IMG/VR virus record: IMGVR_UViG_3300027895_000005
Location: 1 to 38,138 of that record
Strand: one strand, 5' to 3'
Source: a virus
DNA length: 38,138 bases
Positions 164-9,558 of this stretch are shown in pieces (the first letter of the stretch is position 1; the number at the start of each line of letters is the position of its first letter). The notes under the pieces were generated by a model. It was not told the origin of the DNA. It searched no databases and was given only the letters and a program-made list of their open reading frames with translations. The position numbers and the translations under genes were made by a program.

Positions 164-1666
164 TCAGGGTGTCGCCGTTACGGGCGTCGGCAACGTCACC
201 CCCAACGCCGCAAGGATCGCCTGCACCGCCGGACCGGCAGAGACGATCAGCGCCGCCAGACCCGCCCAGTTCTTCTGACCCGCGAGCGCGATCACCTGGA
301 GCACCAGCGGGTAGTCTTGCGCCAGCAGTCCAGCCAGGACCGGCCAGTTGACCGTGTGCGGCGACAGTCCGGCCGACTTCATGACCGAGTGCATCGCGTG
401 GAACTCTTCCTCAACTTCCACGACGGACGCACCGGGCGCCGGTTCGGAGACAACCCCATAGGTCCCAGCGGGAATCGCGACGGGGGCGGCGAAGGTCACG
501 CGGGTGCCTTTGCTGATCGCACGGGCGAATTTCAGGTGAAACAGGTCCGTCGAGACGGGAGGCGGCGGAGGGGGAGGCGGTGGAGGCGGGGACGCCGTCC
601 CTGACAGCACGGCAAAGAGTGTCGCCAGCGGCCGGCCAAGCCCGCTGCACGGGTCAGGTCCCACAGTGGCGCTGTACGCGCCGTTGTTGCCGTTGGTGAC
701 GTCGTAGAACGACTTCGGGTTGGCCCACAACAGCGGGTTGACCGCTGCGAGTACGGGAAGGCCAGCCTTGACGCGTGCCCCGTTGACCGCACCCAGAAAG
801 CCGGCCATCATCGGTGCCACGGCCGACGTCCCGCCGATGACCTGCCATGTGCCGTTGATGACGACGTTGTGCCCCGTGTTGGGGTCGGCGTTCATCGCCA
901 TGTCGGGAACCATCCTCCCGCTGCCCTGGCTGTTGGCCGGCTGCCACGAGGGAGCGGGAACCAGCCTGGAGAACCCCCCTCCCGTGCCTTCACCGTCGCC
1001 GTTGTTCCATACCGTTTCGAGGCCGCCAACCGGCAACGAGGTTCCACCGCAACCGACGACGCCCCCTCTGCTTGCCGGACAATCCACGGTCGGCGCGTTC
1101 TCCCCGTCTCCGGAGTCGTTATCCCCCGACGCGGCGCAGATCGGGTAAGGCGCTGCGACCACGGCCATGTCAAGCGCGGTCAGGTCGCCTGCGTCCCACT
1201 GAGGCTCGCCCGAACCCCAGGACCATGAACCAGCGAAGACCCCACCCAGAGAGGTAGCGTAATTGATGCAGTCCGCGAACGCCGCCCCGCTGTTGGGTCC
1301 GTAGACGATCAGGATCTTCGCTGCCGTCCCGGAAATGTAGCTCCAGAACTCAGCGGCCTTCTGCCAATCCAATCCTACTTCGCCGTCCGCGTCCGACGGA
1401 GAGTCGTCGGCGCCCGCGAGCAGGTGCGTGGTAATGATCGGCGCAGGCATGCCCGACTTCGTTGCCCACAAGGGCACGTCAGAGGGGTAGAAACGGCCCC
1501 CTAACTCGAACAGAACAATCGTCCCTTCGCTGACCGGAATCCCCACCGGCATACCATAAACGGCCGGCATCTGCCCCGGCTCGTAGTTCTGCGATGCGGC
1601 GCGCGGACGGCGTATCTTGGAGTCGATGCGGCGAATATGCGACTTTGCGAATGGTTTGAGGGTCAT
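164..1666 (-). CDS. S53 family (kumamolisin/sedolisin-like) serine-carboxyl peptidase with poly-Pro linker and hydrophobic C-terminal extension
   Basis: Motifs DGEVGLD (catalytic Glu/Asp), SWG, AASGD (oxyanion Asp), PASRGGVVGCGGT, GGGFS, RMVPDMAMNADP, GGTSAVAP (catalytic Ser) and FYDVTNGNNG..GPDPCSGLG (Ca site). Start at 1666 chosen from the TAATG overlap with the upstream ORF. Confidence 0.92.
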   Translation of the reverse strand: MTLKPFAKSHIRRIDSKIRRPRAASQNYEPGQMPAVYGMPVGIPVSEGTIVLFELGGRFYPSDVPLWATKSGMPAPIITTHLLAGADDSPSDADGEVGLDWQKAAEFWSYISGTAAKILIVYGPNSGAAFADCINYATSLGGVFAGSWSWGSGEPQWDAGDLTALDMAVVAAPYPICAASGDNDSGDGENAPTVDCPASRGGVVGCGGTSLPVGGLETVWNNGDGEGTGGGFSRLVPAPSWQPANSQGSGRMVPDMAMNADPNTGHNVVINGTWQVIGGTSAVAPMMAGFLGAVNGARVKAGLPVLAAVNPLLWANPKSFYDVTNGNNGAYSATVGPDPCSGLGRPLATLFAVLSGTASPPPPPPPPPPPVSTDLFHLKFARAISKGTRVTFAAPVAIPAGTYGVVSEPAPGASVVEVEEEFHAMHSVMKSAGLSPHTVNWPVLAGLLAQDYPLVLQVIALAGQKNWAGLAALIVSAGPAVQAILAALGVTLPTPVTATP

Positions 1667-1827
1667 TATTTCCCCATTGTTGTTACTGTTCCATCGGGCA
1701 TGACCACGCACGTCTGCCCGTTTTTCAGCATCTTCACCGGACCGCCCAGCACAACCGGGACCGGCACGGCCACTTCCCAGCCCTGCGTCTGGAGTTCGAC
1801 GATCTTGTCCGCCTGGACCTTGCTCAC
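1666..1827 (-). CDS. Small hypothetical protein (~53 aa)
   Basis: Fills the gap in the operon, its stop overlaps the S53 start, and a GTG start is likely. Confidence 0.6.
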   Translation of the reverse strand: MSKVQADKIVELQTQGWEVAVPVPVVLGGPVKMLKNGQTCVVMPDGTVTTMGK

Positions 1828-1843
1828 TTCTTCACCGCCGTGT

Positions 1844-2461
1844 TCAGTGCGCCTTGAAAGCAAACATCGCTATCGCCATCGCGACGGCCGCCAGCATACC
1901 GACGACGCCAATCAGCATTCCCCAGGCGTCCCCGGCACCCTTGCCTCTGCTCTCATAGGCGGTCATCCGTTGCTCGATGGTTCCCGTCCTCTCCTTCTGG
2001 TCGTCGATCTTGCCAACCAGGGCGTCCGTCTTGGCCTGTACAAGGTCCTGGAGCTTGACGATAGTTTCCGTGGTGGATTTCTCGCTCTTGTCGATGGCCT
2101 TCGCGTTGCTCTCGTCCTGCTTGGCGGCGGCTTCCTTCTGGGCGGCGAAGGCGGCGTCAACGGCAACCTTGTTGTCTCTGCTCTCGCGCTCGCTGCGAGT
2201 GTCCCGCTCCAGGAACTGCTTGGCAACGCTGTTGAATTTCTCCTCGTGAACCCTTCGCAACGTCTCTATCTTCTCATCAACGAGTCTGGGCAAGTTGCCC
2301 AACTGTTCGCGCTGGAGTTCGTTAGCTTTGTCCATGCCGTTGATGCGCGTCTCGATGAACTCCTTCAACATTGCTACTTCACGCAAGAGCGCTCTTGTCG
2401 TTAATTCCGTGGGGTCTGGGACCGGCACGGACCCGGTAGACAGCTTGTGTTCTTCCGGCAT
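1844..2461 (-). CDS. Coiled-coil protein with C-terminal transmembrane helix (lysis-module membrane protein)
   Basis: GAGGAG RBS before MPEEHK, a charged heptad-like body, and C-terminal WGMLIGVVGMLAAVAMAIAMFAF. Confidence 0.8.
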   Translation of the reverse strand: MPEEHKLSTGSVPVPDPTELTTRALLREVAMLKEFIETRINGMDKANELQREQLGNLPRLVDEKIETLRRVHEEKFNSVAKQFLERDTRSERESRDNKVAVDAAFAAQKEAAAKQDESNAKAIDKSEKSTTETIVKLQDLVQAKTDALVGKIDDQKERTGTIEQRMTAYESRGKGAGDAWGMLIGVVGMLAAVAMAIAMFAFKAH

Positions 2462-2469
2462 TTTTCTCC

Positions 2470-2706
2470 TCATGCACCGTCCTTCGGCCTCTGACGTTCC
2501 TTCTCCATCTCCTGAATCATCCGTTCCTCGAAAGCTACTCTTCTCGGCACCTCCGCAAGGGACGCCCTCACGGCGTCAATGGCCTTCTCCAGTACGTCCA
2601 GCCGTCTCTCGGCTTCCCTGGACCGCCGGTTGGCCCTAGACGACAGCCAGACAGCCGCAATGACGCACGCGGCGCTGGCGACGGCGAGCAGGAGCGCCTG
2701 GTCCAC
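2470..2706 (-). CDS. Small protein with N-terminal TM helix and coiled coil
   Basis: LLLAVASAACVIAAVWL followed by a charged helix. GTG start with a GGCAGGT/GAGG-like upstream sequence. Confidence 0.65.
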   Translation of the reverse strand: MDQALLLAVASAACVIAAVWLSSRANRRSREAERRLDVLEKAIDAVRASLAEVPRRVAFEERMIQEMEKERQRPKDGA

Positions 2707-2713
2707 ACCTGCC

Positions 2714-2881
2714 TCACTGCAACGGCGCGCCGAACAGTTTCCAGCCCAGCAAGCCGAGCAGGACGAACAGCATCAAGTTGCCGCCCAGCATGCCGTAGTT
2801 GCCGCCGGCCACTTCGGCGCGGTTCCAGTACAGGCCGAAGAAAAACCACAACAGCATAATAACCCAGAACAAAATTCCCAT
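2714..2881 (-). CDS. 55-aa two-TM membrane protein (holin-like), absent from the ORF track
   Basis: Translated by hand: MGILFWVIMLLWFFFGLYWNRAEVAGGNYGMLGGNLMLFVLLGLLGWKLFGAPLQ. AAGGAAGG lies upstream. Confidence 0.8.
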   Translation of the reverse strand: MGILFWVIMLLWFFFGLYWNRAEVAGGNYGMLGGNLMLFVLLGLLGWKLFGAPLQ

Positions 2882-2914
2882 AGGCAGATGGATACCCTTC
2901 CTTTCACGAATAGT

Positions 2915-3319
2915 TTACGTGGGCGTTTGCTCGCTCTCTCCTGGTCTCATCTGGCTCTGCTGCCGCGGCCCCCTGCGGTTGGTTTCCGGAATGTTGTAAC
3001 GGCAGACGGTGCTCAGCTTCGCCAGGATCTCTTCCTTAGCCTTGTTCGCCGTCTCGTGCGTCTCGTCAATGGCGTCGGTCATTCTGGTAGTGGCCTGGTG
3101 GCGCAACTCCCTCTCGATGTCGCGCTCCTTGTGGCTGGCGTCCCACTGCTTTTCCACCAGCGCCATCTGCTGCTTCATGGCCGCTATCAGGTTGTCGCGG
3201 ATGGGGATGACCAGTTCCCGACCGATCCAGACCACCATTCTCCAGAGCCCGTACCCTCCCGCCACGATGATCATGCTTGCCAGGCCGAAAGTTTGTAAAA
3301 GGTTCGTCCAAACTTCCAT
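2915..3319 (-). CDS. Membrane protein with N-terminal TM helix and coiled coil (holin/lysis-associated candidate)
   Basis: LLQTFGLASMIIVAGGYGLWRMVVWIG followed by a helical charged tail. The start is uncertain (3319 or 3403). Confidence 0.7.
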   Translation of the reverse strand: MEVWTNLLQTFGLASMIIVAGGYGLWRMVVWIGRELVIPIRDNLIAAMKQQMALVEKQWDASHKERDIERELRHQATTRMTDAIDETHETANKAKEEILAKLSTVCRYNIPETNRRGPRQQSQMRPGESEQTPT

Positions 3320-7668: not shown

Positions 7669-9558
7669 TCACCCCAGCAGCAACCCCGGAAACCACCAGT
7701 ACGACTGATCGAGCGGGGCAACTAGCGCTCCGCTTGTCCCGCCCGTCCACGAGTAGAGCAGCCCTTGCGGCGTCAGGAAATACCATCCGCCATATGCCGT
7801 GTTGCTGCCGTTGCCGCTCTGATACCAGTCCGCATCCATCCCGCGATAGGTTGTGTCCCACGCGCCCGTGAACTGCAAATCCAGTCCGGCAGGCGGCGTG
7901 TATCCCGCCGTCGCCAGCGCGAGGGGATTCTGCCAGAGGCTCGTGTCCATCAGAGCGACCGTCGCCGACGATTGCCCCGTAGCAGAGCCTTGTACGCCGT
8001 CCCACTGGTGCAGCGTGCCGTCAGCGAGGATGAAGTACCACCCGTAATGCGCCGTGTTCGACCCGTTGGCGCTTTGGAGCCAGTCGGCGTTGATGCCGTA
8101 CTGTACGGTGTACCAACGGCCGGTGTATTGCAGGTCAAGAGACTGTTCAACGCCAGCCAGGTAGGATGAGGCAGGCCAAGGAAATTCAACGGGTATGCTG
8201 GAAACGCCATTGGCAATCACCGTGAGGGAGTATGTTCCCGGGTTGAGTCCAGCGGGAACCATGAACTGTGTGCTGACGACCTGCGCGCCCGTGGCGACTA
8301 CACTGCTCCAGCCGTAGGTCGTCGCGAAGACCGTGTTGCCACCCGCTGACAGCGTGACCAGCGGGTAGTTGCTCGCCATCTGCGCGTCGTCGCCGTAGGA
8401 CGCCCCCTCGTTCCAGCCGTTGAGGTTCGTGCCCGCGACGGTGTACGACCCGTCCGCATCCGGCAACACGCTGGCGATGGTTGGAGCGACACCCGCAGGG
8501 GCCGCGCCTGCCTCGCTATAGACCACCAGTGAGTCAGTGATCCCGTCCGTCATGAGCACCTGACCCGTGGGCAGGAGCAGCATCCTCGCGGGGAAAGCCG
8601 GCTCGCCCGAGTAATCGCCTGGCGGCGTCGGGACGCTCGTGATGGTGTTGCTCGCAGGGTTGTACTCGAACACCTGCGAGGGCGCCGTGTATCCCGGCTG
8701 ATCGGCGATGAATAGGACATTGCCGTCTGGCAGTTCGGCCGCGGGCGCGTCGTCGGCCACATTACCACCCGGGATCGTCGGCCCCTGCGTCCAGGCGTTG
8801 CTCGCGGGGTTGTAGAGCCCTGTCTCGCCCGTCGCGCCGAGGAAGAACACCTGTCCGCTGTACAGCAGCATGGCCGGCCCGATCTCGGGTTGACTGCTGG
8901 CGAGCGCTGGCCCCTGTCCGGTCCAGGTCCACGTCCCCGACGTGGGCGAGTACACCTGTCCGTACTGCGGGTATCCCTCGACGTCGTAATCCAGCACGCC
9001 GCCGCCGGGCAGCTTCACCCACGTCTCCTCTTCGCCCGGATCGCCGCCAGCCTTGCTTCCCGTCTGGGTCCATGTGTTGCTCGCGGGCGCGTAGATCCAC
9101 GTCGTGGCATCGTGCGTGGACCCTGCCAGGACGTTGCCGTCCGGCAGGACCATCAGTTCGCCGTCGCCAAAGGAAGCCTCCGGGAATGGTGCAATGGCTG
9201 TCCAGGCGTTGCTCTGCACGTGGTAGATTTCCCCGTCCGGGGTGTTATCCCCGCCCGCGCTACTGAACTCGCCGCCGAGGAACATCACATCGCCATCGGG
9301 GAGCACAACCGAACCGTAGGAGTTCCGCGAGTTGATGCTGCTCGCCAGCGTGGACCAGACGCCGTTGACATAACTCCCATTCACGGGCGTCAGTTCGTAC
9401 CACGTCGTCGAACCGAACGCGGCGCTCTGCGCCATGACGTCGCCATTGGTCAACAGCAGCATGGTGCTGACGGCCGATGGTGGCGCATTCGCCAGCAGTG
9501 TGTAGCCAGCAAGGGCGATACGATCTTCGAGGGTTTCCAGGTTCGGTCGAGTCGTCAT
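7669..9558 (-). CDS. Kelch/galactose-oxidase-like beta-propeller protein with planctomycete LEPRxLL-type N-terminus, Ig-like domain and two C-terminal aromatic repeats
   Basis: MTTRPNLETLEDRIALA at the start. Repeated LLxxGxV...YxPxSNxWT blades. Duplicated LDLQ(Y/F)TG.W...ADW.QS.NGSNTA..GWYF units. Confidence 0.85.
   Translation of the reverse strand: MTTRPNLETLEDRIALAGYTLLANAPPSAVSTMLLLTNGDVMAQSAAFGSTTWYELTPVNGSYVNGVWSTLASSINSRNSYGSVVLPDGDVMFLGGEFSSAGGDNTPDGEIYHVQSNAWTAIAPFPEASFGDGELMVLPDGNVLAGSTHDATTWIYAPASNTWTQTGSKAGGDPGEEETWVKLPGGGVLDYDVEGYPQYGQVYSPTSGTWTWTGQGPALASSQPEIGPAMLLYSGQVFFLGATGETGLYNPASNAWTQGPTIPGGNVADDAPAAELPDGNVLFIADQPGYTAPSQVFEYNPASNTITSVPTPPGDYSGEPAFPARMLLLPTGQVLMTDGITDSLVVYSEAGAAPAGVAPTIASVLPDADGSYTVAGTNLNGWNEGASYGDDAQMASNYPLVTLSAGGNTVFATTYGWSSVVATGAQVVSTQFMVPAGLNPGTYSLTVIANGVSSIPVEFPWPASSYLAGVEQSLDLQYTGRWYTVQYGINADWLQSANGSNTAHYGWYFILADGTLHQWDGVQGSATGQSSATVALMDTSLWQNPLALATAGYTPPAGLDLQFTGAWDTTYRGMDADWYQSGNGSNTAYGGWYFLTPQGLLYSWTGGTSGALVAPLDQSYWWFPGLLLG

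Follow-up and report, generated by a model that had tools for sequence, protein, structure and literature searches.

The stretch of DNA considered here, called the window (38,138 nucleotides; positions 1 to 38,138 of IMG/VR virus record IMGVR_UViG_3300027895_000005), comes from a soil phage and holds at 164-3319, entirely on the minus strand, a cassette of six open reading frames (ORFs): four for proteins with transmembrane segments (TMs), one small ORF, and one for a 500-residue S53 peptidase. A first-pass annotation, made from the letters alone, had placed these ORFs at the same positions, and the ORFs, their hydropathy and their overlaps are all recovered. The ATG of the protease gene overlaps the stop codon of the small ORF (TAATG), which bears out the translational coupling proposed there. 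The source contig is circular (105 kb, its end repeating its start over ~145 bp), and the cassette can therefore be followed beyond the window, into an operon with genes for two exported haem-c proteins and a Gly-rich exported protein.

The S53 protease and its cassette

The 500-residue protein is a member of the S53 family and is not of the secreted zymogen type. It matches pro-kumamolisin (1T1E) by sequence (E=8e-47), and its structure model, which has a subtilisin-like fold, retrieves kumamolisin in Foldseek (E=9e-28; TM-score by target up to 0.80). The Glu/Asp/Ser triad that had been read as intact (E96, D100, S281) is invariant, as are the oxyanion residue D182 and the Ca-site residue D322, across 35 homologues of 48-82% identity, and catalysis is thus apparently under selection. 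A further Ca-site residue, D338, is nearly invariant in the same set (D322 and D338 are aligned to kumamolisin). The signal peptide and long pro-domain whose absence had been noted are indeed not found: no Pro-kuma_activ domain (PF09286) is present in cis or anywhere in the genome. A pro-domain supplied in trans was sought in the genome without success, and the 53-residue ORF was rejected as a split propeptide, since it also accompanies papain-like proteases and matches no pro-domain profile.

Judged from its relatives, this protease belongs to a large pro-less S53 subfamily. About 105 of the top 120 homologues begin no more than 100 residues before the catalytic core, and the pro-domain profile matches only 2. 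A quick IQ-TREE search gathers the pro-bearing kumamolisins, together with one contig-truncated row, on a single branch (SH-aLRT 99) away from the pro-less enzymes, and gives the close clade of the phage protease a support of 100. The idea that pro-less S53 enzymes are confined to phages was rejected, as contigs of cellular genomes carry them too. The close clade has no member among the best 80 GTDB matches (maximum 43% identity); S53 scans of IMG/VR returned no match, and a metagenome scan gave only distant kumamolisins. Paired pro-less or short S53 genes occur in L080, L106 and L198/L206 (cellular or unassigned contigs).

The first-pass annotation had counted about 25 residues ahead of the mature domain. 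The segment is indeed a short stub (27 residues); it is not an arbitrary leader, in that it aligns with the linker of pro-kumamolisin (1T1E). Folded as a separate chain, the stub docks in the active-site groove of the model with His10 against Ser281, Asp182 and Glu96 (complex score 0.89 against 0.05 for the best control; runs in agreement to 88% or more, pLDDT of the partner 67 or more), passing a mark that is reached by 58 of 80 solved pairs and 2 of 110 mismatched pairs. The model thus suggests that the N-terminal stub sits in the groove as the pro-kumamolisin linker does; because likeness to 1T1E probably helped it to pass, it speaks for resemblance and not for inhibition. In the S53 enzyme TPP1 the linker blocks the active site until autoactivation at low pH (PMC2635056); kumamolisins are active at a pH of about 4 and lower, and characterised S53 enzymes need low pH (PMC11294657). 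A full pro-domain may be dispensable because a mini-propeptide and a pH gate would together serve in its place.

The membrane genes are less uniform in their associations. The 134-residue protein has no family match of note and no homologue in related loci. The 55-residue two-TM protein, which also lacks a family match, is by its shape the best candidate for a holin, and a 62-residue two-TM gene in the L212 cassette is similar to it by pairwise alignment. The 78-residue protein has weak PHROG matches to a holin (E=8e-4) and to an Rz-like protein (E=2e-3). A spanin lipoprotein partner was not noticed by eye, no predictor having been run. The family of the 209-residue protein has 628 homologues, was located in 35 IMG/VR loci, and in IMG/VR phages adjoins Amidase_2, GH25, CHAP, M15 and glucosaminidase lysins. 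Pfam searches of 51 hand-picked neighbours gave Amidase_2 (4), PG_binding_1 (4), NlpC/P60 (3), GH25, Rv2525c, M15_3, M15_4 and CHAP (2 each), and others; the adjacency was confirmed gene by gene in eight loci, and some loci have no nearby lysin. The 209-residue gene also adjoins papain-like proteases (L092/L093, L212, L213). Orthologues of the 53-residue ORF flank such proteases in L092/L093 and L212, and one lies within the L091 module. The S53 gene and all four membrane genes do not form a conserved unit: the four were rejected as a fixed partner set, being mostly mosaic across related loci, and only the 209-residue gene, the small ORF and probably the 55-residue gene recur. A stand-alone response-regulator receiver gene follows a TM coiled-coil gene at L001:15790-16206, L083:8863-9243 and L212:16762-17235.

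The protease slot and the haem-c genes

What is conserved is a unit made up of a protease of any of several classes, the haem-c pair and the Gly-rich (Gly/Val-rich) exported protein; the S53 enzyme itself is replaceable. The haem pair is present at all six close S53 phage loci and at the distant L175. Exactly one co-oriented protease lies within 7.2 kb (range 0-7.2 kb) of the haem genes in 19 of 21 loci, and the occupants are S53 in 8, papain-like in 5 (L091, G002, G200, L212, L213) and M10 in 6 (G169, G059, G240, G010, G023, G024). The non-S53 loci were reached through the haem gene or the 209-residue membrane gene; 11 of the 13 loci found without use of S53 hold one protease (6 M10, 5 papain-like), and no S53 gene occurs at loci found in this way. 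The two loci outside this count are a contig of only 3.6 kb and a provirus that is 30% complete. In this genome (G000) and in G002, the slot protease is the sole such match in the whole genome. Class assignment was independently confirmed for one member each (Pfam M10, E=7e-19; xylellain, E=3e-11; papain-fold models, TM-score 0.63-0.71). Several M10 versions carry an N-terminal membrane anchor. In L212, the order 209-residue gene, small ORF, protease, immunoglobulin (Ig)-like gene is repeated with papain in place of S53. That 19 of 21 loci keep a protease even though three unrelated classes replace one another there suggests that its activity is required. As a separate observation, the papain-like protease at L212:11843-13963 is split by an HNH-domain intein just after the putative catalytic His motif.

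The exchange extends to the C-terminal ends of these proteins. The poly-Pro linker and amphipathic tail described in the first-pass annotation are both present in the S53 protein, the tail with one refinement: a beta-type module (residues ~375-410) precedes the amphipathic helices, which appear in the structure model. Among S53 tails, 73 of 78 open Pro-rich. The beta module is common to P0008, P0010, P0015, P0017 and P0027 and, by eye, to the papain-type L212 and L213. At least two kinds of tail are common to S53 and papain versions after the Pro linker by BLAST (a third by eye), with cross-class matches between P0002 and L093 (69%), P0024 and G200 (E=1e-17) and P0004 and L091 (E=1e-7). The layout of the S53 protein is that of a catalytic domain, a Pro linker and a swappable tail.

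Both haem proteins (537 and 321 residues) are exported and have CxxCH motifs. The family of the larger has 4292 representatives, its nearest atlas clusters being mostly viral; its CxxCH is invariant and its model confident (pLDDT 94). The model has no Foldseek match and no VIA match at Z of at least 5, which does not show the fold to be new; its central sheet has weak c'-beta/P460 matches (Z 4.5, 4.2 and 3.6; root-mean-square deviation 3.6-4.2 over 99-110 aligned residues). The smaller protein starts with a segment rich in Tyr or Val, which is followed by a helical middle part, and it includes a class I-like haem domain. Scans of IMG/VR with the haem gene were insensitive. Other genes keep company with the module. 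The Ig-like gene recurs in L091, L175, L212 and probably L084; an Acb2/Tad1-like anti-defence gene lies in or beside the module at G000:C1:99851-100108 and in L084, L085 and L092; a gene with an intradiol dioxygenase C-terminal domain lies within the G002 module (L092:8445-9002). Elsewhere in the window, a Kelch-repeat protein (7669-9558), possibly host-derived, has at its start the motif LETLEDR, which we take to resemble a planctomycete extracellular-protein motif.

Table 1. Features of the cassette and of the operon past the circular junction (window coordinates unless marked)
Feature	Position	Strand	Remarks
134-residue protein, candidate holin or accessory	2915..3319	-	one weak TM (7-25), then polar helical region
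55-residue two-TM protein, holin candidate	2714..2881	-	TMs 1-19 and 36-54 (hydropathy)
78-residue N-anchored coiled-coil protein	2470..2706	-	TM 4-22 (hydropathy)
209-residue C-anchored coiled-coil protein, lysis-cassette marker family	1844..2473	-	TM 186-204
53-residue small soluble protein, coupled to protease gene	1666..1827	-	GTG start
500-residue S53 (kumamolisin-like) protease without pro-domain or signal peptide, candidate lysin	164..1666	-	
S53 N-terminal stub, residues 1-27	1586..1666	-	basic, net +7; aligns with 1T1E linker
S53 catalytic domain, residues 28-357	596..1585	-	sequence, structure
S53 poly-Pro linker, residues 360-370	557..589	-	sequence
S53 C-terminal tail, putative envelope-targeting part	164..544	-	beta-type module, then amphipathic helices
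Helical gene, ~69 residues	1..150	-	spans circular junction
Operon beyond junction	genome 105244-98189		order: Ig-like (142 residues), TM protein (205), haem-c (537), haem-c (321), Gly/Arg/Phe-rich exported protein (236)
Ig-like gene, 142 residues	G000:C1:104816-105244		preceded by small helical gene
Exported haem-c pair and Gly-rich exported protein (L087)	G000:C1:98189-103221		

A probable lysis locus and its alternatives

The first-pass annotation had seen no muralytic enzyme in a cassette that ran off the window. Read onward around the circle, the cassette shows none. Among the 132 proteins called in the genome (searched with Pfam, and 62 of them with PHROGs) no known endolysin family was detected; six-frame searches for Amidase_2, phrog_7, SLT and PG_binding_1, run alongside positive controls, give no match; and G002, an 89%-complete relative, likewise yields no known muralytic family. 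(These searches took in this genome and G002; L001, L083, L084, L085, L002, L086 and L175 lay outside them.) No canonical endolysin was seen beside the S53 gene, and the protease slot is conserved among related phages. The neighbours of the 209-residue family suggest that the protease slot is a lysis slot, as does L176:10001-12513, where a distant pro-less S53 gene is immediately followed by genes for a probable lysozyme (Pfam E=2e-3, phrog_7 E=3e-4), a TM protein and a lipoprotein-like protein, in a phage with a GcrA-like gene.

A planctomycete-type host with a protein-rich envelope had been proposed, and the markers agree. The genome carries a TIGR02996 domain above cut-off, and of 252 Gemmataceae genomes 8 carry the haem gene or module, for the most part surrounded by phage genes, which makes Gemmataceae the likely host family. 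Core peptidoglycan genes are not found above cut-off in Gemmataceae (MraY 0/252, MurD 0/151; controls 10/14). The YTV wall proteins do turn up, in 57 of 61, so that incompleteness of the genomes alone is not the cause of the gap. The same pattern has been described (PMC8567305). Taken with the comparative tests and the conservation of the slot, a host that apparently lacks MraY and MurD argues for the protease-assisted lysis originally suggested.

The best explanation, which we consider fairly probable, is a lysis locus in a Gemmataceae-type phage, with a holin-released, acid-activated protease serving as lysin against a protein wall. In a fuller version, put forward only tentatively, the part of lysin falls to whichever protease fills the slot (S53, papain-like or M10), the two haem-c proteins help to break a Cys-rich wall, and pH together with the mini-propeptide gates the S53 enzyme. 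On the main reading, the S53 enzyme would build up in the near-neutral cytoplasm, where pH and the stub would both keep it inactive, and a small TM protein of the cassette would set the time at which it is let out. Once in the periplasm, at a presumably lower pH, it would clip its stub after His10, and its tail would anchor it at the envelope, where it would cut the Cys-rich protein wall. The haem proteins might mount a redox attack on the cross-linked wall (a guess), and the cationic Gly-rich protein might, equally speculatively, help to open the outer membrane, a task otherwise done by spanins.

A number of observations weigh against a protease lysin. Pro-less S53 genes occur in cellular genomes. 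None of the TM genes is a confident holin (best PHROG E=8e-4), and no known lysis system makes use of haem proteins. The position of the module varies (it lies among head genes in L002 and L091), in G010 its context does not look like phage, and one fragment (L094) has no protease. The M10 and C1 profiles of the slot census were built from the same loci. L176, where the S53 gene accompanies a probable lysozyme, indicates that S53 can be an accessory. Many genomes used are incomplete metagenome assemblies, the host is assigned from markers, and some peptidoglycan components have been detected in G. obscuriglobus (PMC12673574), which makes a divergent wall and an unrecognised muralytic enzyme possible. 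The favoured reading draws on genome sequences, and it presumes a more acidic periplasm in the host.

Some of these points favour a role for the protease as an accessory to lysis, with the haem proteins or an unrecognised hydrolase doing the main wall-breaking. This alternative, unlikely though it is, survives best. It would accommodate L094 and L176, and the haem pair is the more constant part of the module, the large protein having a very large family whose atlas clusters are mostly viral; the persistence of a protease at 19 of 21 loci, despite exchange among three classes, is difficult to fit with it, and no other hydrolase candidate turned up. Ranking just after it, and likewise unlikely, is a non-lytic periplasmic module (for envelope remodelling, superinfection exclusion or host redox control) in which the protease would act on the exported haem and Gly-rich proteins to mature them. 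The protease lies 0-300 bp from the large haem gene in many loci, and the G010 module stands among cellular genes, as this alternative might lead one to expect. However, three interchangeable chemistries of differing specificity fit bulk degradation better than site-specific processing, the S53 and papain versions have no export signals, and a lysis-marker gene flanks the slot. Independently of this argument, the G010 locus (L191; G010:C65:11984-15162), with M10 and haem genes between cellular-looking genes, may be a domesticated copy or a remnant.

That the protease is a virion component digesting the protein wall at entry is improbable. The S53 gene stands in a late operon after tail-type genes, and its linker and tail could dock it on the particle, but several M10 versions are membrane-anchored, the neighbouring genes encode membrane and exported proteins, and the locus shifts among tail-distal, head and pre-terminase positions in the manner of a lysis block. 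A cytoplasmic protease directed at host defence or other host proteins, compatible with the missing signal peptide and the Acb2/Tad1 gene nearby in several genomes, is very improbable given the low pH that characterised S53 enzymes need (PMC11294657), the export of the anchored M10 versions and the late-operon placement.

Known systems and significance

The phage enzyme can be compared with kumamolisin and kumamolisin-As (MEROPS S53; 1T1E, 1SIO), with which it shares fold, Glu-Asp-Ser triad, oxyanion Asp, Ca site and groove-threading linker. It differs in lacking a signal peptide and, whether in cis or in trans, a folded pro-domain, in its poly-Pro and swappable tail, and in lying on a branch apart from the pro-bearing enzymes. 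As in cassettes of the lambda S-R-Rz/Rz1 type, small TM genes and a signal-less hydrolase stand in a late operon, and the 209-residue family is common to canonical cassettes. The cassette protease also swaps catalytic domain and tail as modular endolysins (catalytic domain, linker, wall-binding domain) do. Unlike holin-endolysin-spanin systems, this one has an enzyme of a protein-endopeptidase family with no peptidoglycan-binding domain, has no spanin lipoprotein that was seen, and adds the haem-c pair and the Gly-rich exported protein. PeiW and PeiP, the pseudomurein endoisopeptidases of archaeal viruses, are likewise peptidase lysins for a non-murein wall, and cut the isopeptide cross-links of a glycan wall; in the phage cassette, by contrast, any of three protease classes may occupy the slot, and protein is the presumed target. 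The large phage haem protein resembles cellular haem-c proteins fused to PSCyt1 or DUF4384 (Planctomycetota, Pseudomonadota), from which the phage form differs as a stand-alone two-gene system with no solved relative found. What appears to be new is the whole module of protease, haem and Gly-rich proteins, the protease and membrane part alone being like a holin-endolysin pair; no published description of the module was found in a literature search that was thin on subscription journals.

The locus brings to light a large group of pro-less S53 enzymes, apparently uncharacterised, whose members may fold without a pro-domain, together with a haem-c family that is very large, associated with phages and confidently modelled, and for which no solved relative turned up. 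The module offers a way to test how tailed phages get out of bacteria that have little or no peptidoglycan, and to test the debated nature of the planctomycete wall. The slot proteases of these phages would lend themselves to probing which wall component bears the load in Gemmataceae, whose sequenced genomes hold prophage versions of the module.

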